Below are positions 3,884-58,829 of a DNA stretch of 64,000 nucleotides, piece after piece. The notes below the pieces were generated by a model that saw only the letters and a program-made list of their open reading frames with translations, made no database searches and had not been told where the DNA came from. The stretch comes from a phage. Numbering within the stretch: the first letter of the stretch is position 1; each line of letters opens with the position of its first letter. A program made the position numbers and the translations under genes. The stretch is taken from the sequence record OZ335959.1; one strand, given 5' to 3'.

Positions 3884-4501
3884 GTGATTATTTCTAAGTT
3901 TGTTAAAGTGAAAATTGTACCATCAAATTTTAAACATTATCAATCAAAGGGTTATAAATTAACACCTCTTGGAGCGGTTAAACATGGATTTAGGTATTAT
4001 GATATTGATGTTAAAGTTGAAGACATTAAAGGTAATACCGCGTATGTAAAATGCCGTTGCGATAAATGTGGAATTGAATATAACCAACGCATTGGAAGAA
4101 ACACTGATATTTGTCGTGATTGCCGTCATAAAGATAAAATGCGCAATAATTCATATGGTTCCGCGAATAAAGGAAAAACAGTAGAATGTATGCATGGCGT
4201 AAATCATCCAAGATGGAACCCAAATAAATCTGAAATGCGTGAATATATTTCATTGGTATATAAAGAAACTCGTAAGCATAAGAAAATTTGGTCAAAATGG
4301 CCAAATGCTGATAAAATAGGAGTGTGCGGTACAAAAGGTGCTTACCAACTTGATCATAAGGTATCTATCAAATACGGTTTTGATAATTTAATTCCTGCTG
4401 AAATAATTGGCGGTATTAATAATTTAGAAATAATCACTTGGGAATCTAACCGAGAAAAATCAAAAAGAAATAGTGTAGATCTTTGGGATTTACTAGAATG
4501 A
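3884..4501 (+). CDS. HNH-family (HNH_3-like) endonuclease-like protein with N-terminal Cys4 zinc-ribbon-like motif, about 205 aa; start uncertain (GTG 3884 with GAGGAA RBS, or ATG 3851)
   Basis: C-terminal LDHKVS...GGINNLEIITWESNREKSKRN resembles the HNH_3 motif; CRCDKCG...CRDCRH Cys pairs; the ORF-track TTG start at 3845 reads through a GC hairpin. Confidence 0.6.
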   Translation: MIISKFVKVKIVPSNFKHYQSKGYKLTPLGAVKHGFRYYDIDVKVEDIKGNTAYVKCRCDKCGIEYNQRIGRNTDICRDCRHKDKMRNNSYGSANKGKTVECMHGVNHPRWNPNKSEMREYISLVYKETRKHKKIWSKWPNADKIGVCGTKGAYQLDHKVSIKYGFDNLIPAEIIGGINNLEIITWESNREKSKRNSVDLWDLLE

Positions 4502-7440: not shown

Positions 7441-8078
7441 TGAATGAACCCCAATTACTAATTGAAACTTGGGGTCAACCTGGCGAAATTATTGATGGCG
7501 TGCCAATGCTTGAATCTCATGATGGAAAAGACCTAGGTTTAAAACCTGGTTTATACATCGAAGGAATATTCATGCAAGCGGAAGTCGTCAATAGAAATAA
7601 ACGTCTTTATCCAAAACGCATATTAGAAAAAGCGGTAAAAGACTATATCAATGAGCAAGTTTTAACTAAACAAGCTCTCGGAGAATTAAATCATCCTCCA
7701 CGCGCTAATGTTGACCCGATGCAAGCCGCTATCATTATAGAAGATATGTGGTGGAAAGGAAATGACGTATACGGACGAGCTCGTGTTATTGAAGGTGACC
7801 ATGGTCCTGGAGATAAATTAGCAGCTAATATTCGTGCCGGATGGATTCCAGGAGTTTCTTCTCGTGGATTAGGTTCATTGACTGACACAAATAAAGGTTA
7901 TCGTATCGTAAACGAAGGATTCAAATTAACTGTAGGTGTTGATGCAGTATGGGGTCCAAGTGCTCCAGATGCATGGGTAACTCCTAAGGAAATTACCGAA
8001 TCACAAACGGCGGAAGCCGATACAAGTGCCGATGACGCCTATATGGCTCTCGCAGAGGCCATGAAAAAAGCGTTATAA
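7440..8078 (+). CDS. 21: Prohead core protease, 212 aa
   Basis: Length and position match T4 gp21. Confidence 0.9.
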   Translation: MNEPQLLIETWGQPGEIIDGVPMLESHDGKDLGLKPGLYIEGIFMQAEVVNRNKRLYPKRILEKAVKDYINEQVLTKQALGELNHPPRANVDPMQAAIIIEDMWWKGNDVYGRARVIEGDHGPGDKLAANIRAGWIPGVSSRGLGSLTDTNKGYRIVNEGFKLTVGVDAVWGPSAPDAWVTPKEITESQTAEADTSADDAYMALAEAMKKAL

Positions 8079-8936: not shown

Positions 8937-10502
8937 ATGACTATCAAAACTAAAGCTGAACTTTTGAACAAATGGAAGCCATTACTGGAAGGTGAAGGTT
9001 TACCGGAAATTGCTAATAGCAAACAAGCGATTATCGCTAAAATCTTTGAAAACCAGGAAAAAGATTTCCAGACAGCTCCAGAATACAAAGACGAAAAAAT
9101 CGCTCAGGCGTTCGGTTCTTTCTTAACAGAAGCTGAAATCGGTGGTGACCACGGTTACAACGCTACTAACATCGCTGCTGGTCAAACTTCTGGCGCAGTA
9201 ACTCAGATTGGCCCAGCTGTTATGGGTATGGTACGTCGTGCTATTCCTAACCTGATTGCTTTCGATATTTGCGGTGTTCAGCCGATGAACAGCCCGACTG
9301 GTCAGGTATTCGCCCTGCGCGCAGTATATGGTAAAGACCCAATCGCTGCCGGCGCTAAAGAAGCATTCCACCCAATGTATGGTCCAGATGCAATGTTCTC
9401 TGGTCAGGGTGCTGCTAAGAAATTCACAGCTCTGGCTGCTAGCACACAAACCACAGTAGGTGATATCTATACTCACTTCTTCCAGGACACTGGTACTGTG
9501 TATCTGCAGGCTTCTGCTCAAGTAACAATTAGTTCTACTGCAGATGATGCAGCTAAATTAGATGCTGAAATTAAGAAACAAATGGAAGCTGGCGTACTGG
9601 TAGAAATTGCTGAAGGTATGGCTACTTCTATCGCTGAACTCCAGGAAGGTTTCAACGGTTCTACCGATAACCCATGGAATGAAATGGGCTTCCGTATCGA
9701 TAAACAAGTTATCGAAGCTAAATCTCGTCAGCTGAAAGCTGCTTACTCTATCGAATTAGCACAAGACCTCCGCGCTGTTCACGGTATGGATGCTGATGCT
9801 GAACTGTCTGGTATTCTGGCTACCGAAATCATGCTGGAAATCAACCGTGAAGTTGTTGATTGGATTAACTACTCAGCTCAGGTTGGTAAATCTGGTATGA
9901 CCCTGACTCCGGGTTCTAAAGCTGGTGTGTTTGACTTCCAGGATCCGATTGATATTCGTGGTGCTCGCTGGGCGGGTGAATCCTTTAAAGCTCTGTTGTT
10001 CCAGATTGACAAAGAAGCAGTTGAAATTGCTCGTCAGACCGGTCGTGGTGAAGGTAACTTCATTATCGCTTCCCGTAACGTAGTTAACGTTCTGGCTTCA
10101 GTTGATACTGGCATTTCTTATGCTGCACAGGGTCTGGCTACCGGCTTTAACACTGATACTACCAAGTCAGTATTTGCTGGTGTTCTGGGTGGTAAATACC
10201 GTGTATATATCGACCAGTATGCTAAACAGGATTATTTCACTGTAGGTTATAAAGGTCCGAACGAAATGGATGCTGGTATTTACTACGCTCCATATGTAGC
10301 TCTGACTCCGCTGCGTGGTTCCGATCCGAAGAACTTCCAACCAGTAATGGGATTCAAAACTCGTTACGGTATCGGTATCAACCCATTTGCAGAATCCGCT
10401 GCTCAGGCTCCGGCTTCTCGCATCCAGAGCGGTATGCCTTCTATTCTGAATAGCCTTGGTAAAAACGCTTACTTCCGCCGTGTATATGTTAAAGGTATCT
10501 AA
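8937..10502 (+). CDS. 23: Major capsid protein, 521 aa
   Basis: Length and sequence match T4 gp23; strong terminator downstream. Confidence 0.97.
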   Translation: MTIKTKAELLNKWKPLLEGEGLPEIANSKQAIIAKIFENQEKDFQTAPEYKDEKIAQAFGSFLTEAEIGGDHGYNATNIAAGQTSGAVTQIGPAVMGMVRRAIPNLIAFDICGVQPMNSPTGQVFALRAVYGKDPIAAGAKEAFHPMYGPDAMFSGQGAAKKFTALAASTQTTVGDIYTHFFQDTGTVYLQASAQVTISSTADDAAKLDAEIKKQMEAGVLVEIAEGMATSIAELQEGFNGSTDNPWNEMGFRIDKQVIEAKSRQLKAAYSIELAQDLRAVHGMDADAELSGILATEIMLEINREVVDWINYSAQVGKSGMTLTPGSKAGVFDFQDPIDIRGARWAGESFKALLFQIDKEAVEIARQTGRGEGNFIIASRNVVNVLASVDTGISYAAQGLATGFNTDTTKSVFAGVLGGKYRVYIDQYAKQDYFTVGYKGPNEMDAGIYYAPYVALTPLRGSDPKNFQPVMGFKTRYGIGINPFAESAAQAPASRIQSGMPSILNSLGKNAYFRRVYVKGI

Positions 10503-20196: not shown

Positions 20197-21372
20197 ATGA
20201 GTATGTTGCAACGCCCAGGATATCCAAATCTCAGCGTTAAATTATTTGATAGCTACGACGCTTGGAGTAATAATAGATTTGTTGAATTAGCTGCTACTAT
20301 TACCACATTAACTATGCGGGATTCTCTTTATGGCCGAAATGAAGGAATGTTGCAGTTTTATGATTCTAAAAATATCCATACAAAAATGGATGGGAATGAA
20401 ATAATTCAGATTTCTGTAGCTAATGCAAACGATATTAATAATGTTAAAACACGAATTTATGGATGCAAGCATTTTTCCGTGTCAGTAGATTCAAAGGGCG
20501 ATAACATCATTGCTATTGAATTGGGAACTATTCATTCCATAGAAAATCTTAAATTTGGCAGACCGTTTTTCTCTGATGTAGGTGAATCTATAAAGGAAAT
20601 GCTTGGTGTCATTTATCAGGATCGCACATTATTAACTCCAGCAATAAATGCTATAAATGCTTATGTTCCTGATATTCCATGGACTAGCACATTTGAAAAC
20701 TATTTGTCGTATGTCAGAGAAGTTGCTCTAGCTGTAGGAAGTGACAAATTTGTATTTGTGTGGCAAGACATCATGGGAGTTAACATGATGGACTATGATA
20801 TGATGATAAATCAAGAACCGTATCCAATGATTGTCGGTGAGCCATCTTTAATAGGTCAATTCATCCAAGAATTAAAATATCCATTAGCATATGATTTCGT
20901 TTGGTTGACTAAATCGAATCCTCACAAACGCGACCCAATGAAAAACGCTACTATCTATGCGCATTCATTTTTAGATTCTTCATTGCCAATGATTACTACA
21001 GGAAAGGGCGAAAACTCTATTGTAGTGTCAAGGTCAGGTGCTTATTCTGAAATGACTTATAGGAATGGATATGAAGAAGCTATTCGTCTTCAAACTATGG
21101 CACAATACGATGGCTATGCTAAATGTTCTACTGTCGGTAATTTTAACTTGACTCCTGGCGTTAAAATTATTTTTAATGATAGTAAAAACCAATTTAAAAC
21201 AGAATTTTACGTTGATGAAGTTATCCATGAATTATCCAATAATAATTCAGTAACTCATCTATATATGTTCACTAATGCAACGAAACTGGAAACAATAGAC
21301 CCAGTTAAGGTTAAAAATGAATTTAAATCTGATACTACCACTGAAGAAAGTAGTTCTTCCAATAAGCAATAA
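20197..21372 (+). CDS. 27: Baseplate hub subunit, 391 aa
   Basis: Synteny and size match T4 gp27. Confidence 0.9.
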
Positions 21373-25721: not shown

Positions 25722-26006
25722 ACGGAATGAAATAAAAGCAGCAACTGAAGCAACTAAACTGTCTTCAGTATAAACTTCAATTTTTACCGGAGCTTCTGAC
25801 TCGAATTTACCTGTTACTACACCTTGGAAAATGCTTTCAGTCTGTTCTGGCTTTGAAAAATTTTCAGAAGGAAAAATTCCGAACTTTTTATCTGTTCCAA
25901 AAATTTTGATAAATTCATCGTAAACCGCTTCATTAAAAGCGTTATCAGCAGGAATAACGCCTTCAACTACAAGTTCTTGACCTAAAAAGCGTAAAGAAGA
26001 TTTCAT
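25716..26006 (-). CDS. Hypothetical protein (T4 alt.-3 position), 96 aa
   Basis: ATG start with GAGGAA RBS; early promoter upstream. Confidence 0.6.
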   Translation of the reverse strand: MKSSLRFLGQELVVEGVIPADNAFNEAVYDEFIKIFGTDKKFGIFPSENFSKPEQTESIFQGVVTGKFESEAPVKIEVYTEDSLVASVAAFISFRK

Positions 26007-26037
26007 TTTGTGTTCCTCATGTTATGTCAGTAAGATT

Positions 26038-26067
26038 ATTATAACACAACACGATGGACTTGTAAAC
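26038..26067 (-). promoter_or_regulatory. T4 early-type promoter (GTTTAC, 18 nt, TATAAT) for the alt.-3 ORF; near-identical copy at 41542..41571
   Basis: -35 GTTTAC and -10 TATAAT on the minus strand; about 50 of 53 nt identical to the alc promoter and leader. Confidence 0.55.
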
Positions 26068-32185: not shown

Positions 32186-33024
32186 TAGAATGCTCCTTGG
32201 AAAATATTATCACCGCTAGTAGGTCTATTATACAAATACTCTATGCCACCAGGTTTAATGTAGTTCCATGTCTGAAACGGATGTGTCTGATATGGATGAT
32301 ATAGATGATTATAAGGATTAAATCCAGGCGTTCTCCAGGTAGTGTTCCAAGGAAAAGAATCGTTTTTAACCATCTTCTCAATTAAATCTTTTATAGCTTT
32401 TTCACTATCAAAACTTTCTTTATTTTCCTTCGGCGAAAAAAGCTTATTTTCTACATCATTCCATGTATAAACTCGCTGAGCAGTTTTTGGAATATTGTCA
32501 CGCTCTCCTCGAGCCATCCAATAAACCGGAACATTTAATATTTCACTCGCATGATCGCAATGGTGAGCGAGATCGTCAATATAACAAATTACGTTATATT
32601 TCTCTTTTGCCTTTTTAAACAACTCTTCTTTTGAAGAATCATGACCACACATCATTACTTCTGAGAAGGCACCAGGAAAAAGAGCATTCAAATTAAATTG
32701 ACGATTCAGCAGAGCGTCAATAGAATCACCCAATGCTGTAACAGCTACAAAATTATAATCTTCTTTTAATTTGTTAATTACACACAGGGCATCTTTATAC
32801 GGAGACAAGTAACGAATAAAATCTGAACGATTGTATTTTTCAATTAGCTTGACACCGAGTTCTTCATCACAATTAAAGAGTTTACCCGGAGAAATAAATT
32901 TCTCATCTTGGATCATTTTTAAAATATGTTCTAACGGAAGATTATATTTCTGAGCAAAATAAGGAAGACCTGATTGCCAGCTTAAACATACTCCATCAAT
33001 ATCAGTTAAAATAGTAGGCTTCAT
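32185..33024 (-). CDS. Putative HAD-superfamily hydrolase (30.2 position), 279 aa
   Basis: N-terminal LTDIDGV resembles HAD motif I; possible motif IV IDD. Confidence 0.55.
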   Translation of the reverse strand: MKPTILTDIDGVCLSWQSGLPYFAQKYNLPLEHILKMIQDEKFISPGKLFNCDEELGVKLIEKYNRSDFIRYLSPYKDALCVINKLKEDYNFVAVTALGDSIDALLNRQFNLNALFPGAFSEVMMCGHDSSKEELFKKAKEKYNVICYIDDLAHHCDHASEILNVPVYWMARGERDNIPKTAQRVYTWNDVENKLFSPKENKESFDSEKAIKDLIEKMVKNDSFPWNTTWRTPGFNPYNHLYHPYQTHPFQTWNYIKPGGIEYLYNRPTSGDNIFQGAF

Positions 33025-33479
33025 AGAGAGTCTCTTAATAGGTTTAACACATCAATAAATTCAGCTTCGGTTAGTATTGTATCATCTTTTGTTAGACCAC
33101 TAGCCATGCTGTGCTTCAAAACTTTTCCTTTCGAGGCTTGTAATGCATCACGAAAGCCCTTATTTTGGAACGCTGCTTCAAAATATGCATTTGTGTATAA
33201 TTCTTTCCACGCTGGAGAGTATCTTGAAAACGGAACTCCAAGCCAGAACAACGTGCCACGGTCCTGAGCTCTAGCATAAGCTCGTCCAGCTTGTTGGGCG
33301 GCAAGCCCGGATAACCCAAATATACGACGTTGCTGTTCAACATTTTTCACCTTACACCCTTGGAGGAATCCTTCGAGACCTCCAAATTGGATACTATCCA
33401 TAACAAAAGGCCATTGGGCGAAATTACTTAATGCGCATGATGGCCATCTAAAATTGCTTCTAATCTCTAACTCAGACAT
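33021..33479 (-). CDS. NADAR / YbiA-like (DUF1768) domain protein (30.3 position), 152 aa
   Basis: ALSNFAQWPF aligns with E. coli YbiA FSNFAAWPI core motif. Confidence 0.6.
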   Translation of the reverse strand: MSELEIRSNFRWPSCALSNFAQWPFVMDSIQFGGLEGFLQGCKVKNVEQQRRIFGLSGLAAQQAGRAYARAQDRGTLFWLGVPFSRYSPAWKELYTNAYFEAAFQNKGFRDALQASKGKVLKHSMASGLTKDDTILTEAEFIDVLNLLRDSL

Positions 33480-33687
33480 CTTTAATACTTATAATTTCAA
33501 CATCAGCCCAATGACCGTAACTTGGTAAACGGTCTTCAATAGATAATCCGCCATCATATTTAAGCATTTTAATTGTCATAATATATGGCTCTAAATGGTC
33601 TTCAGTGAGTGGAGAGACATCAGTCACGCGATAAGTAACTTCGACCATTTCCGTGCCAAGTAATTTCTGGATTAATTTCTTAAACAT
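33472..33687 (-). CDS. Hypothetical protein, 71 aa
   Basis: ATG start, operon packing. Confidence 0.5.
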   Translation of the reverse strand: MFKKLIQKLLGTEMVEVTYRVTDVSPLTEDHLEPYIMTIKMLKYDGGLSIEDRLPSYGHWADVEIISIKDV

Positions 33688-33691
33688 TTTA

Positions 33692-33979
33692 TTAAAATCT
33701 CATCTGAAAACCGTGTGATTTAACATTACCGCCGCCAATATCAGAAATGTTAATTTCACGCGCAATTGAAGGGTCAATGTCAATTTCACGATTGAGTTTA
33801 ATGATAGCTAAAGTATCGCGGCCATTTACAGTACGGAACTCTAAAGGACATACTACATTAACGTAGTTTTTAATCGATTCGCTGGTAGGTTGCAAATGAG
33901 CAGGAAGGTCTTTAGGCGCTTTAGAGAAAACTACTTCACAGAAATTTTTGCGGGTGTCAAAATAAGTAGTCATAAACAT
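33692..33979 (-). CDS. Hypothetical protein, 96 aa (start trimmed to ATG after hairpin and GAGGAA RBS)
   Basis: The ORF-track extension translates the upstream GC hairpin. Confidence 0.5.
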   Translation of the reverse strand: MFMTTYFDTRKNFCEVVFSKAPKDLPAHLQPTSESIKNYVNVVCPLEFRTVNGRDTLAIIKLNREIDIDPSIAREINISDIGGGNVKSHGFQMRF

Positions 33980-34019
33980 AGTATTTTCCTCAGTAAGGGG
34001 CCGAAGCCCCTGTTTTATT

Positions 34020-34385
34020 TTAAATATCAAATTCGTTAAGAACTACATCAAAGATTGCTTCAAGATGCTCAGGTTTAGCTCTGTTACTTAGAATATGACG
34101 AATCCAAGTTTTAACCAGAAGCTTGCGATTAACGCCATTCCAGCAAGGATGAGTCCCTAAATCGCGTTGACGAAAATCATCATCCAAAGCGATTTTGAAG
34201 TTGGAACCTTCCATTGTGATTGAAACCGTGATGCCATTTTCAAATCGCATATAAACGTAGTTAGGAGTCATATACTGTTCAATTTCGCATACTGATCCAT
34301 TTTGATGTTTCCAAAGGCAAATAGTATCAATAGAACCTGCAATACCATTAGAAACATATTTACGTTCAAAGTTGATGTAGTTCAT
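34020..34385 (-). CDS. Hypothetical protein, 121 aa
   Basis: ATG start; early promoter with inverted repeat upstream. Confidence 0.55.
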   Translation of the reverse strand: MNYINFERKYVSNGIAGSIDTICLWKHQNGSVCEIEQYMTPNYVYMRFENGITVSITMEGSNFKIALDDDFRQRDLGTHPCWNGVNRKLLVKTWIRHILSNRAKPEHLEAIFDVVLNEFDI

Positions 34386-34411
34386 TTTTATTCTCCAAGA
34401 TGTTTAATTGC

Positions 34412-34451
34412 GGTACAGGTATATAATATCATATCCTGTACCAAAGTAAAC
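34412..34451 (-). promoter_or_regulatory. Early promoter with 8-bp inverted repeat (GGTACAGG/CCTGTACC) bracketing the -10; PeSL-like
   Basis: GTTTAC at 34446-34451, TATTAT at 34423-34428. Confidence 0.5.
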
Positions 34452-34453
34452 AA

Positions 34454-34786
34454 TTATTTTACTACTTTCCAGTGCTGCATGTCAAGTTTACCAACTTTTT
34501 TCATCTTCTCAATTAAGCGTTCGGCACGTTGGCGAGCTGTAACATAATACCATTCACCCAATTCATTTTGTTCAATTTTTCCAACGATTATTGTATTCAA
34601 TTCATAAATCCAACCAGTAAAGAAATTATGAACTTGAATTGTAAAGGTGAAATCTGTTCCCATACCTTCTGTTGTTTCTACTTCAATAATATCACCTTCA
34701 ACTGCCATTAAGAACCACATAGTTTCATCATATTTACCATTGAAGCATTTAGTTTTAACTGCAGCGTTCAGATTAATCGTTTTCAT
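34454..34786 (-). CDS. Hypothetical protein, 110 aa
   Basis: ATG start; early promoter upstream. Confidence 0.55.
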   Translation of the reverse strand: MKTINLNAAVKTKCFNGKYDETMWFLMAVEGDIIEVETTEGMGTDFTFTIQVHNFFTGWIYELNTIIVGKIEQNELGEWYYVTARQRAERLIEKMKKVGKLDMQHWKVVK

Positions 34787-34800
34787 TTTATTCTCCTTTG

Positions 34801-34843
34801 TTTGTGTAAGATAATACTATCACAAAGGAACTATACTGTAAAC
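34801..34843 (-). promoter_or_regulatory. Early promoter with inverted repeat TTTGTG/CACAAA around the -10
   Basis: GTTTAC at 34838-34843, TAGTAT at 34814-34819. Confidence 0.45.
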
Positions 34844-34860
34844 AACTTTGTGCAATCTTT

Positions 34861-34891
34861 GGAAAATAAAAAAGGACTCCCGAAGGAGTCC
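34861..34891 (-). terminator. Terminator after the small basic ORF
   Basis: GGACUCC-UUCG-GGAGUCC followed by UUUUUUAUUUU on the minus strand. Confidence 0.6.
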
Positions 34892-34896
34892 TCAAC

Positions 34897-35073
34897 TTAT
34901 GCTTTCTGCTTACCAAAACGAGAAGCATCATCTCGAAGAACCGCACGTGCTCGGCGCATGATCTTCTCAACAGTTTGATTGATACGAGAGTTCGACCCAC
35001 GCTTGTAGCCAGCGCGTTTAGAATCACCAACTTTCTTTTCAACTGCTTTCTTTGCTTTAGCTTGTTTTGCCAT
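34897..35073 (-). CDS. Small lysine/arginine-rich protein, 58 aa (internal ATG of the 72-aa track ORF)
   Basis: MAKQAKAKKAVEKK...; terminator hairpin directly downstream. Confidence 0.45.
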   Translation of the reverse strand: MAKQAKAKKAVEKKVGDSKRAGYKRGSNSRINQTVEKIMRRARAVLRDDASRFGKQKA

Positions 35074-35192
35074 TATAAATTCTCTTTTAAATGAAAATGC
35101 AGGACTTATTGGCATTGCCTGCGCAAGCCCTCAAGGGGAACATAGGTTTTGAATATTTACCGACAGGATAACCATAAACCTCGTCAACATAC

Positions 35193-35441
35193 TTACTTCA
35201 GTGTTACCACAAAGTGACGAACTGCTTTTCGTGCAGCAGAAGCCAGTGGCTTAGCATATTTAAGTTCATCTTTTTCCTGAAGCTCAGCAGCTAATGCAGT
35301 TTGAGCAGGATTCAGATGTTTGAAATAACGCAGGATTTCAAGAGCTTCGGCTTCAACATCAATAGATGCGCCATAGTTTTCGTGACCGTTATTCCATGCG
35401 TTTCGTTGCAGTTCAAGAGCGTGTTGTAATTGTTTAATCAT
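35193..35441 (-). CDS. rIII: rIII lysis inhibition accessory protein, 82 aa
   Basis: Sequence and length match T4 rIII. Confidence 0.85.
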   Translation of the reverse strand: MIKQLQHALELQRNAWNNGHENYGASIDVEAEALEILRYFKHLNPAQTALAAELQEKDELKYAKPLASAARKAVRHFVVTLK

Positions 35442-35579
35442 TTGAAAATTCTCGTTAGAGATTAAAACTCGGTAGTCACGTTCTTCTGAATTTCATCTTC
35501 TTTCGACAGATCTCTCAGTTGTAGACTACCACATAGAATTGTTCGGTTAACTTATTATTCCGACACCCAATTCATATTA

Positions 35580-35587
35580 TTATTTAT
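35580..35587 (-). promoter_or_regulatory. Possible late promoter (TATAAATA on the minus strand) upstream of rIII
   Basis: Forward tatttata. Confidence 0.35.
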
Positions 35588-35588
35588 A

Positions 35589-35924
35589 TCACTTATAAAG
35601 ACACGGAATAGCTTTATAGTGACAGGTAACGAATTTTTGTTTAATTTCTTTTGGCTGCTTAAGGCCCAGAGCTACAAAAGGATGCGGAACGTTTCGAATT
35701 TGACCAACTGGAAGAGAAGTCAAATCACCAACTTCACAGAAACCTTCAGGAACATCAGGACCAACAGAGTGAACTACACACAGTTCAGGAACTTCACCTT
35801 GAACACGTTTACCGATAATAAGTCCTGATTCTGTAACTTCTTCATCACCAGCCTGTGCAGGTTCAGAAACTAAAATAACATATTCACCGACAGCACGAAT
35901 TGGTAGCTGTTGTACTTCAGACAT
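35589..35924 (-). CDS. 31: Co-chaperonin (GroES analogue), 111 aa
   Basis: Sequence matches recalled T4 gp31. Confidence 0.9.
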
Positions 35925-35954
35925 CGTTTTTCCTTTTTGTTAGCAGATGAATTA

Positions 35955-35979
35955 ATAATAACAAATAATTCTTAAAGCA
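35955..35979 (-). promoter_or_regulatory. Possible MotA-dependent middle promoter for gene 31
   Basis: MotA-box-like TGCTTTA, 12 nt spacer, then TATTAT on the minus strand. Confidence 0.4.
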
Positions 35980-35980
35980 T

Positions 35981-36280
35981 TTATTTACCAATAAATTGAA
36001 GCAAATGCTCAACTTTCATACCATTAACGGAAATCAATTTGTCAATAGAAAAACCTCGCCATGCACCAAGCTCAACATCAAATACTGGAATCATATCAGT
36101 AGATTCTTTCCGAGCAGATTCAGTCAATTTACCAGTTTGCATAAAGTCCGCATCACGAGTGCCTTTCATAGTACGAATAGTACCATCAGACTTTTCAAAA
36201 ACTACGTTTGAAACCCCCATGGACAATTTAGTTTTCAAAATTTCACGAATTGCTACTTTTTGTTCAGTCGTCAGTTTCAT
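35981..36280 (-). CDS. Hypothetical protein (31.1 position), 99 aa
   Basis: ATG start; synteny. Confidence 0.55.
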   Translation of the reverse strand: MKLTTEQKVAIREILKTKLSMGVSNVVFEKSDGTIRTMKGTRDADFMQTGKLTESARKESTDMIPVFDVELGAWRGFSIDKLISVNGMKVEHLLQFIGK

Positions 36281-36517
36281 TTATTTACCTATTACAGTTT
36301 TAATATGAGTTGTTCCACGTTCTTTAAGAGTGGAAAGCAATTTTTGGCATTTTTCTAAATCAGATTTCCAACTATACGGCCTATCAATACTAGTCCAATC
36401 AGTTTTATAATACTGTTTCCATTTAGAGAAAAAATATTTCTTATACTCTACAGCAAATGAAATGTTCTCGTTAGAATAAGAACTAATTGCTGTGAGCTGT
36501 ACCAAACGAAATTTCAT
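36281..36517 (-). CDS. Hypothetical protein (31.2 position), 78 aa
   Basis: ATG start overlapping cd stop. Confidence 0.5.
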   Translation of the reverse strand: MKFRLVQLTAISSYSNENISFAVEYKKYFFSKWKQYYKTDWTSIDRPYSWKSDLEKCQKLLSTLKERGTTHIKTVIGK

Positions 36518-37098
36518 TATTCACCACAGAATTCGTTGATATTTTCCCAATTTAACTTATTCAAGTTTTTCTTAGGAACATTAAACACTTCAATACCTGC
36601 ATTTCGCAGAATATCATCCCAGCCAGGTTTATTTTTATCGTATGTTTCGCAATAAACCAGCTTTTTAATACCAGATTGAGCTATCGCTTTTGCACAATCT
36701 GGGCAAGGAGAAAGTGTTACATACATAGTAGCACCTTCAATTGAAGAACCGTTTCGTGCAGCAAACAAAATCGCATTTAGTTCAGCATGAATTTCATTTT
36801 TAGATGACCATTCAGAGTGAGCGCTACGGTGTTCTTTCGCCAAGACAAAACGATCAGTTGAACCAAACGATACACATTCAGGCTTATGACCTTGAATGAT
36901 AGTATGTTTAGGCTTATTCAGCAACCAACCTTGCTCAGCAGCATAATCACAACAGTTCACACCCCCGGCAGGTGAACCATTATATCCGGTAGAAATAATA
37001 CGTCCATTCTTTTCAATTACTGCTCCTACCTTCCAGGAGCAACATTTTGATTCTTGCGATACTAAATATGCAATTTGAAGTACTGTACTCGCTTTCAT
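36517..37098 (-). CDS. cd: dCMP deaminase, 193 aa
   Basis: Zinc-binding HAE and PCPDC motifs; length as T4 Cd. Confidence 0.92.
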   Translation of the reverse strand: MKASTVLQIAYLVSQESKCCSWKVGAVIEKNGRIISTGYNGSPAGGVNCCDYAAEQGWLLNKPKHTIIQGHKPECVSFGSTDRFVLAKEHRSAHSEWSSKNEIHAELNAILFAARNGSSIEGATMYVTLSPCPDCAKAIAQSGIKKLVYCETYDKNKPGWDDILRNAGIEVFNVPKKNLNKLNWENINEFCGE

Positions 37099-37433
37099 TT
37101 CATAATCACCAGATAAGCAGATTTAGCAGTTTCAACACGATAAATTTCGTGACGAAGTTTAGTTATACTTTTAATAACAGAACTAATTATATTCTGCCCA
37201 TCTTTAAAGCGGTTTTTCTTATCAATAAAAATTGCGCCAACCATCTTTTTGTGAAGCTCAACTGGGTACTTCGTCACAATAATAGCATCATACACAGAAG
37301 GATGAATACTATTCACTAGAGTGTCATTCATTAAAGTTATTCTAATGAACTGTGCTGTTTCAGAGTCAAGCGCTCTATGATCGCCAGTATCATTTTCAAG
37401 ACAAGTATCAATTATATCAGTTAAATTCATCAT
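37095..37433 (-). CDS. Hypothetical protein (cd.1 position), 112 aa
   Basis: ATG start; packing. Confidence 0.5.
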   Translation of the reverse strand: MMNLTDIIDTCLENDTGDHRALDSETAQFIRITLMNDTLVNSIHPSVYDAIIVTKYPVELHKKMVGAIFIDKKNRFKDGQNIISSVIKSITKLRHEIYRVETAKSAYLVIMK

Positions 37434-37666
37434 AGTACGCCATACACCCTTTGTGCTTCAACTAATCCATCAAAATCCAATTTGAGATGTGTTATTTGAT
37501 CACCATCACCTGGATTCACAATTACTAATACTGAACGAGGAGTTTCGGTAATAACACGAACCGATGTTTCTGGAAATCGTTCAGAAACCTTATTTACCAA
37601 TTCCTGGGCAAATAGTTTAACTTTTTCTTGGAATTCTTTAACAGTAATTGGTTTTTCACTTAGCAT
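37430..37666 (-). CDS. Hypothetical protein (cd.2 position), 78 aa
   Basis: ATG start; packing. Confidence 0.5.
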   Translation of the reverse strand: MLSEKPITVKEFQEKVKLFAQELVNKVSERFPETSVRVITETPRSVLVIVNPGDGDQITHLKLDFDGLVEAQRVYGVL

Positions 37667-38187
37667 GTTGATCCCAGCTCCTTACTTTCAACGTTTTTAA
37701 CTAATTTGACAGAAACTAATTCGGCATCTTGGGTAATCATTACCGGGCCTTCTTCATACTCTTCAAGATATTCTAGAGCTTTCTTTTTAGCTTCTTCCTT
37801 CGTATCAGTTTGAGCATAGATATAAAACATACAACCAGTAATACCTACTACTTTCCACTTAATTTCTTTATCAGTTTTAATTTCAAATTTACTGACAGAA
37901 TCATCTTTTTGAACTTCTTCGAAAAAAGAATATTCTAACATATAAGCAATTGAAAATAACGGGCTAACTTTATAGGATTCTCCCATTACATCAACAGCTT
38001 TATACCAACGGTCATCAATTTCGCGTTTAATGCTAATAACATTTTTCGCAGGATCTATTTTTACTTTAAATGAATTTTCCCCAATAAATTGAGCAATTCG
38101 TTTATTAGCCCCACAGGTTTCATTAAAAATATCTTTATATCCAGCTTTAAAACGATAAACCTTATCTTCTTCAAACCATTCGCTCAT
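37660..38187 (-). CDS. Hypothetical protein (cd.3 position), 175 aa
   Basis: ATG start with GAGGAA RBS; early promoter upstream. Confidence 0.55.
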   Translation of the reverse strand: MSEWFEEDKVYRFKAGYKDIFNETCGANKRIAQFIGENSFKVKIDPAKNVISIKREIDDRWYKAVDVMGESYKVSPLFSIAYMLEYSFFEEVQKDDSVSKFEIKTDKEIKWKVVGITGCMFYIYAQTDTKEEAKKKALEYLEEYEEGPVMITQDAELVSVKLVKNVESKELGSTC

Positions 38188-38208
38188 TTCAATTTCCTCA
38201 TTTATTTT

Positions 38209-38247
38209 GGTAGAGCTATAATATCACAACTCTACCGTAAAGTAAAC
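38209..38247 (-). promoter_or_regulatory. Early promoter with inverted repeat GGTAGAG/CTCTACC around the -10
   Basis: GTTTAC at 38242-38247, TATTAT at 38218-38223. Confidence 0.5.
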
Positions 38248-38249
38248 TG

Positions 38250-38525
38250 TTAAATTGCTTTGAATTCTGATGTCTGCGATTCAAAACGAATATCGCCTTT
38301 GATGACTAGCTCAGCATCAAGACCAAATACGACAATGATATGCGCGGAACCTGGATACAGCGTAATGGCAATAGAATCCACCTGGTCTGGAAGCAAAGTG
38401 TTCAATACATGAGTCACTTGAGCATGAATTCGAAGCTCGGCTGCGTTATCAAGCTTTTCAAACATATTATTAGCGATAATTTGACTAAACACTACTTCTA
38501 CGATTTTAGAATAAGTCGGAAACAT
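38250..38525 (-). CDS. Hypothetical protein (cd.4 position), 91 aa
   Basis: ATG two codons inside the GTG track start. Confidence 0.5.
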   Translation of the reverse strand: MFPTYSKIVEVVFSQIIANNMFEKLDNAAELRIHAQVTHVLNTLLPDQVDSIAITLYPGSAHIIVVFGLDAELVIKGDIRFESQTSEFKAI

Positions 38526-38527
38526 AT

Positions 38528-38728
38528 TCACCCCACATAATTTTCTTCAAGCCAATTAATAACATCCAACGCATTATCAAAAGTTGAACCATCTACTATG
38601 TCTTCTGTTTCATAATCAAGAATATCTAAGTCTATTCTTCCATCAACAATAGGCCATAAACAAAATAGATATTTCTTTTCTTTTTCAATTTTATCGCAAA
38701 GTTGATAAATCTTTTCTATGTTATTCAT
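38528..38728 (-). CDS. Hypothetical protein (cd.5 position), 66 aa
   Basis: ATG start. Confidence 0.45.
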   Translation of the reverse strand: MNNIEKIYQLCDKIEKEKKYLFCLWPIVDGRIDLDILDYETEDIVDGSTFDNALDVINWLEENYVG

Positions 38729-38917
38729 AAGTTTTCCATGGTAAAGGCAGTTTAGTTTTCTTTACTGTTAGTTCAACATCAGGATTCTTTTCTCTTAATT
38801 TAAGGCATTCCTCCCAAGCTCTGATTTCACTAGTGAATACACAAAATTGCCCATTACTAGTACCAACTAAACCACTATTTACAATAACAATAGACCAAGT
38901 TTCATGATGCCACGCCA

Positions 38918-38918
<1 letters not shown>
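38721..38918 (-). CDS. Hypothetical protein, about 65 aa (start moved to the ATG forming a TAATG overlap with pseT stop)
   Basis: The track start would overlap pseT by 30 nt. Confidence 0.4.
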
Positions 38919-40139
<1,221 letters not shown>

Positions 40140-41016: not shown

Positions 41017-41513
41017 AAAGTTTTAATAACCTCTACAATATCGTCTTGAGAAAGACCGTTAATTAAAATATGATGTTCAGCCGGAGATTTAGAAATTTTA
41101 AAGCATGCCTCAACATCTTCTGCCATATCCGACGCGCTACGATTTGGATTACTAATTCCAAGACGATGTTTTCCCGTCAAAGGATTAACGATTATATAGC
41201 ATTTACAGTTGTTGATATGAACATTAGGTTGAGTCTGATTAATGAACACATCACAATCATATTTCGCAAGCTGATTTTCTAAAAAGACTTTCATCTCCTC
41301 AACCGCATCAGGAAGCATATCACGGGCTTGCTCAAGACGACGATTTCGATATTCTTTAATGGTCGTTTTCCGCTTGACTTGTTTAGCTAAATCTTTCTTA
41401 AGATCGGTGATATATCCAACTCGACGATTTCCTTTAAATACAGAAATCCCATCTGTAGTATCACCGTATGCTTCAACGACCATCTCAGTAGTAATAAGCT
41501 GCAAATCCATCAT
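41007..41513 (-). CDS. alc: Probable Alc (host transcription shutoff), 168 aa
   Basis: Synteny between spanins and rnlA; size as T4 Alc. Confidence 0.6.
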   Translation of the reverse strand: MMDLQLITTEMVVEAYGDTTDGISVFKGNRRVGYITDLKKDLAKQVKRKTTIKEYRNRRLEQARDMLPDAVEEMKVFLENQLAKYDCDVFINQTQPNVHINNCKCYIIVNPLTGKHRLGISNPNRSASDMAEDVEACFKISKSPAEHHILINGLSQDDIVEVIKTLCN

Positions 41514-41541
41514 AAAGTCCTCATGTTATGTCAGTAAGACT

Positions 41542-41571
41542 ACTATAACACAACACGAGGGACTTGTAAAC
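41542..41571 (-). promoter_or_regulatory. T4 early-type promoter (GTTTAC, 18 nt, TATAGT) for alc
   Basis: Near-identical to 26038..26067, including the leader. Confidence 0.55.
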
Positions 41572-49740: not shown

Positions 49741-49777
49741 TAGGGTAATAGTATCACACTACTACCCTACTGTAAAC
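49741..49777 (-). promoter_or_regulatory. Early promoter with inverted repeat TAGGGTA/TACCCTA around the -10
   Basis: GTTTAC at 49772-49777, TACTAT at 49748-49753. Confidence 0.5.
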
Positions 49778-50459: not shown

Positions 50460-50489
50460 ATAGTACCACAGTCCTTGTTGTATGTAAAC
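50460..50489 (-). promoter_or_regulatory. Early promoter (GTTTAC, 18 nt, TACTAT)
   Basis: Minus-strand motif upstream of the 76-aa ORF. Confidence 0.45.
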
Positions 50490-53752: not shown

Positions 53753-53790
53753 AGATTTCTATTATATACTATCCAAATCTTAAAGTAAAC
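53753..53790 (-). promoter_or_regulatory. Early promoter for rnh with inverted repeat AGATTT/AAATCT around the -10
   Basis: GTTTAC at 53785-53790, TATAAT at 53761-53766. Confidence 0.45.
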
Positions 53791-57713: not shown

Positions 57714-58829
57714 ATGGAAAAATTTATGGCAGAGTTTGGACAAGGATATGTCCAAACGCCATTTTTATCGGAAAGTAATTCAGTAAGATATAAAATAAGT
57801 ATAGCGGGTTCTTGCCCGCTTTCTACTGCAGGACCATACGTCAAATTTCAGGATAATCTTGTTGGAAGCCAAACATTTAGTGCAGGTCTTCATTTAAGAG
57901 TTTTTGACCCTTCTACCGGAGCATTAGTTGATAGTAAGTCATATGCTTTTTCGACTTCAAATGATACTACATCAGCTGCTTTTGTTAGTTTCATGAATTC
58001 TTTTTCAAACAACAGACTTGTTGCTATATTAACTAGCGGAAAGGTTAATTTTCCTCCTGAAGTAGTATCTTGGTTAAGAGCAGCAGGAACGTCTGCTTTT
58101 CCATCTGATTCTTTATTGTCAAGATTTGACGTATCATATGCTGCTTTTTATACTTCTTCTAAAAGAGCTATTGCATTAGAACACGTTAAACTAAGTAATA
58201 GAAAAAGCACAGATGACTATCAAACTATTTTAGATGTTGTATTTGACAGTTTAGAAGACGTTGGAGCTACAGGATTTCCTAAAAGAACATACGAAAGCGT
58301 TGAGCAATTTATGTCAGCTGTTGGTGGAACTAATAACGAAATTGCACGTTTACCAACTTCATCCGCGATAAGTAAACTCTCTGATTATAATTTAATTCCT
58401 GGCGATGTTCTTTATCTTAAAGCACAGTTATATGCTGACGCAGATTTACTTGCGCTTGGAACTACAAATGTATCAATCCGTTTTTATGATGAATCGAATG
58501 GATATATTTCTTCAACACATGCCGAGTTTACTGGACAAGCTGGGTCATGGGAATTAAAGGAAGATTATGTAGTTATTCCAGAAAATGCAGTAGGATTTAC
58601 GATATATGCACAAAGAACTGCACAAGCAGGTCAAGGTGGCATGAGAAATTTGAGCTTTTCCGAAGTATCAAGAAATGGTGGAATTTCAAAACCCGCTGAA
58701 TTTGGCGTCAATGGTATTCGAGTTAATTATGTCTGTGAATCTGCTTCACCTCCGGATATAATGGTACTTCCTACACAAGCATCGTCTAAAACTGGTAAAG
58801 TGTTTGGACAAGAATTTAGAGAAGTTTAA
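57714..58829 (+). CDS. 35: Long tail fibre hinge connector, 371 aa
   Basis: Synteny and size. Confidence 0.9.
   Translation: MEKFMAEFGQGYVQTPFLSESNSVRYKISIAGSCPLSTAGPYVKFQDNLVGSQTFSAGLHLRVFDPSTGALVDSKSYAFSTSNDTTSAAFVSFMNSFSNNRLVAILTSGKVNFPPEVVSWLRAAGTSAFPSDSLLSRFDVSYAAFYTSSKRAIALEHVKLSNRKSTDDYQTILDVVFDSLEDVGATGFPKRTYESVEQFMSAVGGTNNEIARLPTSSAISKLSDYNLIPGDVLYLKAQLYADADLLALGTTNVSIRFYDESNGYISSTHAEFTGQAGSWELKEDYVVIPENAVGFTIYAQRTAQAGQGGMRNLSFSEVSRNGGISKPAEFGVNGIRVNYVCESASPPDIMVLPTQASSKTGKVFGQEFREV

Follow-up and report, generated by a model that had tools for sequence, protein, structure and literature searches.

Promoter-early stem-loops (PeSLs) were defined in the T4-type phages RB49/phi1 by Arbiol et al. 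in 2010, lying most commonly between the -35 and -10 elements or overlapping the -10 box, with G-T pairs drawn in their stems (PMC2839356). The same study proposed that they act as terminators or attenuators for upstream transcripts, reported that one RB49/phi1 stem-loop cut lacZ expression about as much as rrnB T1, and suggested a role in modular gene shuffling (PMC2839356). Comeau et al. extended PeSLs to PST/T4 and nt-1/KVP40 in 2014 (PMC4122927); the PST/T4 stem-loops in that study lie only just upstream of the promoter, and correspond to canonical terminators in the present data. A review of prereplicative transcription makes no mention of repeats in early promoters (PMC2988021). A second described system is formed by the T4 genes e, soc, 49 and I-TevI, where promoter and start site lie inside a hairpin: long transcripts bury the Shine-Dalgarno sequence (SD) or the AUG, and promoter-proximal transcripts, without the 5' strand of the hairpin, are translated (PMC3014915).

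Here, we describe inverted repeats around the -10 hexamer of early promoters in a 64,000-nucleotide stretch of phage DNA (record OZ335959.1; hereafter the window), together with their counterparts in T4 and related phages. The finding rediscovers an element of a kind already described, now in a phage group and a geometry for which it had not previously been set out, and adds no new class of mechanism, PeSLs having been described in 2010 and ribosome-site masking following the T4 lysozyme (gene e) paradigm. As in PeSLs, the stem-loop is carried in or on a strong early promoter of the sigma-70 type, which has AT-rich sequence upstream and lies between small ORFs, and the element is intergenic, with the upstream stop codon abutting the promoter and an SD and ATG following it. 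Unlike the G-run/C-run stems of RB49/phi1, the arms here are heterogeneous, and the -10-bracketing and anti-SD geometry quantified here for the T4/PST group is absent from the earlier PST/T4 description (PMC4122927); the published reporter evidence, moreover, comes from a single RB49/phi1 stem-loop and not from one of the T4 group.

Inverted repeats in early promoters

The window is the early region of a Tequatrovirus (T4-like phage): in a megablast search, positions 33000-36000 matched many Tequatrovirus phages at 97-98.6% identity, the matches covering genes 30.3-30.9, rIII and 31. By comparison with T4 (NC_000866), a minus-strand block at about 26-54 kb carries alt, 30, 30.x, rIII, 31, cd, pseT, alc, rnlA, nrd, td, frd, 32, 59, 33 and rnh, and is followed by gene 34 on the plus strand; an Rfam scan of 25500-54500 matched no family. 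Eight perfect GTTTAC-N17/18-TAnnnT promoters were found on the minus strand of the window, and all sites share, beside this consensus, a TGn motif and A/T-rich sequence upstream.

The initial annotation had reported at least five minus-strand early promoters with an inverted repeat of 6-8 bp flanking the -10, and all five repeats that it listed are present in the sequence. P30.7 (34412-34451, minus strand, as are all promoters below) has its -35 GTTTAC at 34446-34451 and its -10 TATTAT at 34423-34428, the latter bracketed by the arms GGTACAGG (34435-34442) and CCTGTACC (34412-34419); gene 30.7 lies downstream with its ATG at 34385, and the promoter, at 34451, is identical in T4 at 129918. P30.8 (34794-34843; 34843 corresponding to T4 130310), with its -35 at 34838-34843, its -10 TAGTAT at 34814-34819 and an ATG at 34784-34786, carries TTTGTG (34821-34826) and CACAAA (34801-34806) around TAGTAT, a 6-bp repeat that is part of a stronger 8-bp pairing between TCCTTTGT (34822-34829) and ACAAAGGA (34794-34801), which covers the SD AAGGAG. 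The promoter at the cd.3/cd.2 junction, here called the cd.2-site promoter (38209-38247; T4 Pe133295, 38247 corresponding to T4 133331), has its -35 at 38242-38247 and its -10 TATTAT at 38218-38223 between the arms GGTAGAG (38230-38236) and CTCTACC (38209-38215), and counting G·U pairs extends its RNA stem to 12 bp and leaves a loop of 4 nt. Upstream of frd.1, Pfrd.1 (49741-49777; 49777 corresponding to T4 146143) has its -35 at 49772-49777 and its -10 TACTAT at 49748-49753 between TAGGGTA (49763-49769) and TACCCTA (49741-49747); the T4 counterpart has AGGGTA/TACCCT, 6 bp. Here alone the coordinates given initially were wrong, by one base, the outer arm ending at 49769 and not at 49770. The weakest of the five repeats is that of Prnh, upstream of rnh (53753-53790; -35 at 53785-53790, -10 TATAAT at 53761-53766), whose arms AGATTT (53775-53780) and AAATCT (53753-53758) recur in T4 at 150763, the counterpart of 53790, with a fold z-score of only -0.09.

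We scored the bracketing repeat as the longest perfect repeat whose two arms lie in the spacer and past the -10, respectively, which gave 6, 3, 7, 4, 7, 8, 8 and 4 bp for the eight window promoters. Shuffled-sequence controls, named beforehand as the refutation test for the claim that the repeats are not due to chance, failed to give the same frequency: with the spacer and the downstream 20 nt shuffled separately (3000 shuffles), repeats of at least 6 bp in five of eight promoters compare with 0.64 expected, and repeats of at least 7 bp in four of eight with 0.17 expected, and not one shuffle reached either count. At random positions of the same region, the probability was 0.027 for a repeat of at least 7 bp and 0.007 for at least 8 bp.

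The same features are general in T4. Among 36 intergenic early promoters, folded from the spacer to about +30, the centres of the inverted repeats peak on the -10 hexamer, and 20 of the 36 have a fold z-score below -2 (mean -2.8, down to -7.8), with folding energies of -10 to -24 kcal/mol. Long stems of 14 bp occur at PipII (65799) and at 57990, each with 8 nt between the arms, and stems of 10 bp at 20612, 73939 and PdenV (65413). We then assembled a wider set from 14 loci around gp30.7, 39 T4-like denV loci (IMG/VR), the window and T4, so that 53 related loci together with the window and T4 contributed 256 unique early promoter sequences. Of these, 151 (about 60%) show bracketing repeats with arms of 6 bp or more, where 31.9 were expected; 84 reach at least 8 bp against 2.4, and 51 at least 10 bp against 0.1.

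Promoters from related phages are non-independent samples, and the 256 sequences were therefore reduced to 156 families, between which the left and right promoter halves were exchanged in a half-swap control that keeps any position-specific consensus. Repeats of at least 7 bp were observed in 66 families against 9.6 after swapping (maximum 19 in 200 permutations), and repeats of at least 10 bp in 23 against 0.6. Since the swap removes the signal, the complementarity is specific to each promoter's own two halves. The inverted repeats are, with high confidence, selected stem-loops.

Two geometries and paired substitutions

Across the promoter set the start of the right arm is bimodal, dividing the repeats into a tight class and an SD class. 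Right arms of the tight class start 3-11 nt from where the hexamer begins, which places them over the presumed start site; the arms have a median length of 9 bp and a median spacing of 12 nt (range 7-18 nt). P30.7, the cd.2-site promoter, Pfrd.1 and, weakly, Prnh belong here. An upstream ORF terminates at the -35 in each of 74 cases (median position -2 nt), the downstream ATG follows at a median of 21 nt past the stem, and the genes downstream encode small early proteins of unknown function. The initial observation that the position of the repeats is conserved while their arm sequences differ is borne out, and fits a structural role.

SD-class promoters have an anti-Shine-Dalgarno sequence, directly after GTTTAC, as their left arm and the SD of the following gene as their right arm, as in the arm pairs ATCTCCTGTAG/CTACAGGAGAT, ATCTCCGTTTG/CAAACGGAGAT and TTCCTCCAAG/CTTGGAGGAA; the left arm is positioned as in the tight class, but the loops are 25-35 nt long. 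Such pairing between spacer and ribosome site is found in the window at P30.8, Palc and Palt.-3. Palc, upstream of alc (41511-41571; -35 at 41566-41571, -10 TATAGT at 41542-41547, ATG at 41511-41513), has a spacer AAGTCC(C)TC (from 41565) that pairs with the SD region GAGGACTT (41515-41522), and its T4 counterpart at 136336 folds with -23.9 kcal/mol (z -5.1). Palt.-3, upstream of alt.-3 (26004-26067; -35 at 26062-26067, -10 TATAAT at 26038-26043), is a near-duplicate of Palc in which TTGTGTT (26043-26049) pairs with AACACAA (26008-26014), located between SD and ATG. The two promoters lie 15.5 kb apart and are near-identical over about 55 nt, reading GTTTACaagtcc[a/c]tcgtgttgtgtTATA[A/G]T[a/g][a/g]tcttactgacataacatgagga, and these direct repeats could support PeSL-type recombination as described in the literature.

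With start sites inferred from the T4 name Pe133295 and from the 7 nt that usually separate them from the -10, the 5' arm is upstream of the start in both geometries, indicating that folding is possible in read-through transcripts alone. When the position in the name Pe133295, given by the T4 record, is read as a start site, it falls inside the 3' arm CTCTACC; a literature search for T4 start-site or 3'-end maps yielded nothing usable. The centring on the -10 can be explained by a lack of other free sequence: from the upstream stop codon to the ribosome site that follows, only the spacer and the start-site region are unconstrained.

Compensatory substitutions maintain the pairing as related promoters diverge. 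Two C-G to T-A exchanges separate the paralogous T4 promoters at 20612 and 57990, and those at 73572 and 70359 have ATAGGGT/ACCCTAT and ATAGGCT/AGCCTAT, respectively. Among cd.2-site orthologues, GGTAGAG/CTCTACC is found in the window, T4 and three loci, GGTAGGACT/AGTCCTACC in four other loci, and GGTGGAGTT/AACTCTACC with a G·U pair in one; three pairs of the alignment are changed on both sides (G-C/A-U), and 86% of its cells are paired, a share that falls to 31-61% on shifting the 3' partner by 1-3 columns. In P30.7 orthologues the stem is lengthened to 9-12 bp, and in one of them a C-to-T change produces a G·U pair.

At PdenV, the anti-SD/SD partners and their register differ between lineages and the SD is buried in every lineage. 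RNAalifold found no consensus structure for 35 PdenV orthologues, as pairing register and partner vary by lineage, and the alignment is still informative by eye. Across several genera (L019-L057, about 9936-10003, and T4 65413) the denV SD is always paired with sequence upstream of the start site, its partner being the start of the spacer, the -10 plus discriminator, or a tight inner stem with an outer CTCC/GGAG stem, depending on the lineage: a striking case of a conserved outcome with changing implementation.

Sense-strand RNA and the proposed fate of read-through transcripts

We examined single mismatches flanked by Watson-Crick pairs, with the promoter consensus excluded. Thirteen internal stem mismatches are G·T and three are A·C, a ratio for which base composition predicts 0.65:1; within the tight class, six independent G·T cases stand against one A·C locus. 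No significant excess of G·T over A·C was seen at the pair next to each perfect stem. This preference for G·T over A·C within stems points to sense-strand RNA. Folds of the T4 promoters are also more stable for the sense than for the antisense strand (mean -13.0 versus -9.8 kcal/mol; Wilcoxon p = 1e-4), an asymmetry that stems partly from the consensus TGTGATAtTAT, which is itself G·U-forming and closes the cd.2-site loop to 4 nt. We conclude that the structures are selected mainly in sense-strand RNA.

We consider it reasonably probable that the repeats are promoter-embedded stem-loops of the PeSL kind working in full as follows. A transcript begun at the promoter itself would lack the 5' arm and stay open, and one arriving from an upstream promoter would contain both arms and fold. 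The SD class would thereby restrict translation to transcripts from the gene's own early promoter, by the logic of T4 e, soc, 49 and I-TevI. The tight class, to which four of the five sites belong, may instead act on the upstream transcript, as an attenuator, a pause site or a barrier at its 3' end, replacing the canonical terminator hairpin in compact junctions.

Access to the SD, taken as its unpaired probability in partition-function predictions, separates the two classes. For the SD class the predicted value is 0.07 in read-through RNA, 0.66 in the promoter's own transcript and 0.34 with the upstream part shuffled, and the individual promoters of the window are predicted to behave alike: 0.01 in read-through RNA versus 0.99 in the own transcript for P30.8, 0.00 versus 0.47 for Palc, and 0.00 versus 0.24 for Palt.-3. 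For the tight class the corresponding values are 0.47, 0.55 and 0.45, and masking of the ribosome site by tight hairpins was rejected, the value in read-through RNA being matched by that with the shuffled upstream part. P30.7, the cd.2-site promoter and Pfrd.1 leave the SD 0.73-0.92 unpaired in predicted read-through RNA (0.77 for P30.7 and 0.92 for Pfrd.1), and are not predicted to sequester the ribosome-binding site. The models thus suggest that the SD class hides the ribosome site only in read-through RNA and that the tight class does not. P30.8, Palc, Palt.-3 and PdenV are accordingly predicted to share the geometry of T4 e, soc, 49 and I-TevI; there, however, the promoters and genes are late, whereas here an early promoter carries the anti-SD in its spacer, and the tight class (P30.7, the cd.2 site and Pfrd.1) differs from these genes in leaving the SD untouched.

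The tight hairpins resemble intrinsic terminators in placing a stable nascent-RNA hairpin at the end of the upstream gene, but differ in having no U tract past the stem and loops of 8-16 nt unless G·U pairs are counted. Averaging 1.4 T over the 8 nt past the stem, they were rejected as canonical intrinsic terminators, and termination of that type is unlikely. A terminator consensus scan of 33500-39000 called no -10-bracketing hairpin at P30.7, P30.8 or the cd.2 site; its sole minus-strand call beside a promoter was a canonical intrinsic terminator a short way upstream of P30.8 (34872-34893, minus strand), in which GAGGACTCC ttcg GGAGTCCTT leads into a run of T, and the same element also precedes T4 130310. 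Another candidate role, shielding of the upstream RNA after RegB cleavage at a GGAG SD, was dropped for lack of enrichment, GGAG being present in 42% of the tight class and in 58% of promoters without an inverted repeat.

A canonical upstream terminator precedes only one of 74 tight promoters, compared to 25 of 182 other promoters (p = 0.002), and at the level of families one of 42 compared to 17 of 114 (p = 0.044). This near-exclusivity suggests that tight hairpins and terminators are alternative ways to deal with the upstream transcript.

In the record OL960580.1 (L001), 'rho-independent terminators' called by WebGeSTer at 4403-4445 and 7997-8009 overlap the P30.7 and cd.2-site promoters; they are the same hairpins, without U tracts, and are probably mis-annotated. 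Hairpins embedded in promoters, seemingly a widespread design rule in T4-type phages, would mark RNA by its origin, one stretch of DNA giving an open or a folded leader depending on the promoter used. This bears on the insulation between tightly packed early genes, on the mis-annotation of such genomes by terminator-prediction tools, and on engineered T4 cassettes, in which genes are moved with or without the promoter spacer.

Alternative roles of the repeats

The repeats might serve primarily as a recombination substrate, stem-loop and promoter forming a short conserved cassette where small early genes would be shuffled by homologous or structure-targeted recombination, which we regard as improbable as a primary role. 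Crossovers inside PeSLs and mini-circles have been reported (PMC2839356, PMC4122927), and the near-identical promoters at 41571 and 26067 agree with such a role. One clear case of a gene swap beside a hairpin is also in its favour: at the cd.2 site promoter and stem are kept and the gene after the SD differs among phages, a 175-aa phrog_3710 protein in the window standing in place of T4 cd.2. Homologous exchange, however, needs shared sequence, and the arms are the least shared part of the promoter and change in a compensatory manner; G·U tolerance and anti-SD pairing, too, have no role in DNA recombination. The recombination reading and the RNA explanation are compatible and can coexist.

A comparison of window positions 37660-38187 with T4 cd.2 (L004, 14032-14262) shows promoter, stem-loop and SD kept and a different gene after the ATG, with the exchange junction directly after the ribosome site. 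The phrog_3710 gene follows this ATG in the window and in three loci, cd.2 follows it in T4 and L009, and other gene starts are found in L010-L018.

At the level of DNA, the inverted repeat could be extruded as a cruciform or alter melting of the -10 on supercoiled DNA, tuning the promoter or shutting it off, which appears distinctly unlikely. A precedent is the cruciform-regulated promoter of Horwitz and Loeb (Science 1988), reportedly an engineered or selected sequence that works on the DNA itself when supercoiling is high. It shares with the present sites an inverted repeat centred on the -10 of a sigma-70 promoter, but the evidence here, namely G·U tolerance, anti-SD partners and long spacers, leads to RNA. 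By established energetics, arms of 6-8 bp that lie 14-16 bp apart are poor candidates for cruciform extrusion. These are the dimensions of the window repeats, which makes the cruciforms envisaged in the initial annotation unlikely for these sites; the long perfect arms and short spacer expected of a cruciform are not found at the window's sites, the equal stability of both strands expected of it is at odds with the more stable sense folds of T4, and the tight-class medians (9-bp arm, 12-nt spacing) also weigh against extrusion. PipII and T4 57990, with their long arms and short spacers, would qualify as cruciform-forming on length alone, and the centring on the -10 together with an early-promoter shutoff whose mechanism is stated as unknown (PMC2988021; PMC3014915) adds to the appeal of a DNA device. 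Against it stand the excess of internal G·T over A·C, the SD class, which shares the left-arm position yet has long loops and an obvious RNA logic, and the exclusivity with upstream terminators, which is not expected of a DNA device. It is very unlikely that the tight -10-centred repeats also act on DNA, with phage topoisomerase and nucleoid changes shifting supercoiling a few minutes after infection, the longer repeats then extruding or stiffening the -10 region and so contributing to the abrupt shutoff of T4 early promoters; the evidence disfavours this DNA-acting reading, though least for the long-armed, short-spacer sites.

The initial annotation had also allowed for 'a structural or operator role'. 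Its structural half is upheld by the compensatory substitutions and the half-swap control, and its operator half, in which a dimeric phage or host regulator would bind the inverted repeat and repress early promoters, is extremely improbable. Dyad symmetry centred on the -10 and the unexplained shutoff of early promoters would suit an operator, but the arms have no sequence in common between promoters and their variable spacing provides neither a shared half-site nor a fixed distance; orthologues change both arms together and keep no recognition sequence, G·T pairs inside the arms are tolerated far more than A·C, and several left-arm partners are the SD of the downstream gene. The repeats could also have arisen by chance or as a side effect of the promoter consensus and the AT-rich composition, a reading favoured by six-bp repeats not being rare at random positions (P = 0.08), by the loose CCTAyC motif common to right arms and by the weak Prnh repeat. 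It has next to no probability as a general explanation, given an excess that shuffle, random-position and half-swap controls do not reproduce and the compensatory changes observed; it is refuted for the whole set and may hold for a single 6-bp case such as Prnh.

Several minor observations concern the same promoters. Window positions 38216-38229 (T4 NC_000866 133300-133313, L004) correspond to 14 bp that were once reported as the inverted complement (T4 RefSeq misc_feature), and these 14 bp are exactly the loop between the GGTAGAG/CTCTACC arms. The entry would fit either a hairpin-related sequencing artefact or a true flip of the loop. Inversion of the loop as a promoter switch was considered and rejected: IMG/VR contained no variant with the loop inverted, nor did 664 matching phage records, whose best identity to the inverted query was 93.8%, and the old report is probably a sequencing artefact.

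The frd.3 promoter (50460-50489, minus strand) has no bracketing repeat (best 3 bp) and belongs to the 'tggTACTATacaactatc' promoter family; its T4 counterpart has a canonical terminator before it. This family, comprising T4 27080, 55384, 70696, 146875, 163673 and 167086 as well as window 50489, has a near-identical -10 and leader (tggTACTATacaactatcaactactgatac) without a bracketing repeat, and several of its members have a canonical terminator or a long stretch of non-coding DNA before them. A further family carries a repeat in the spacer only (for example tACCACaaggatGTGGTa, extending into the -10), at T4 2458, 50973 and 167086 and in L012 and L014-L017 (about 680-980), and in some phages a promoter of this spacer-only type replaces the cd.2-site hairpin promoter at the same locus.
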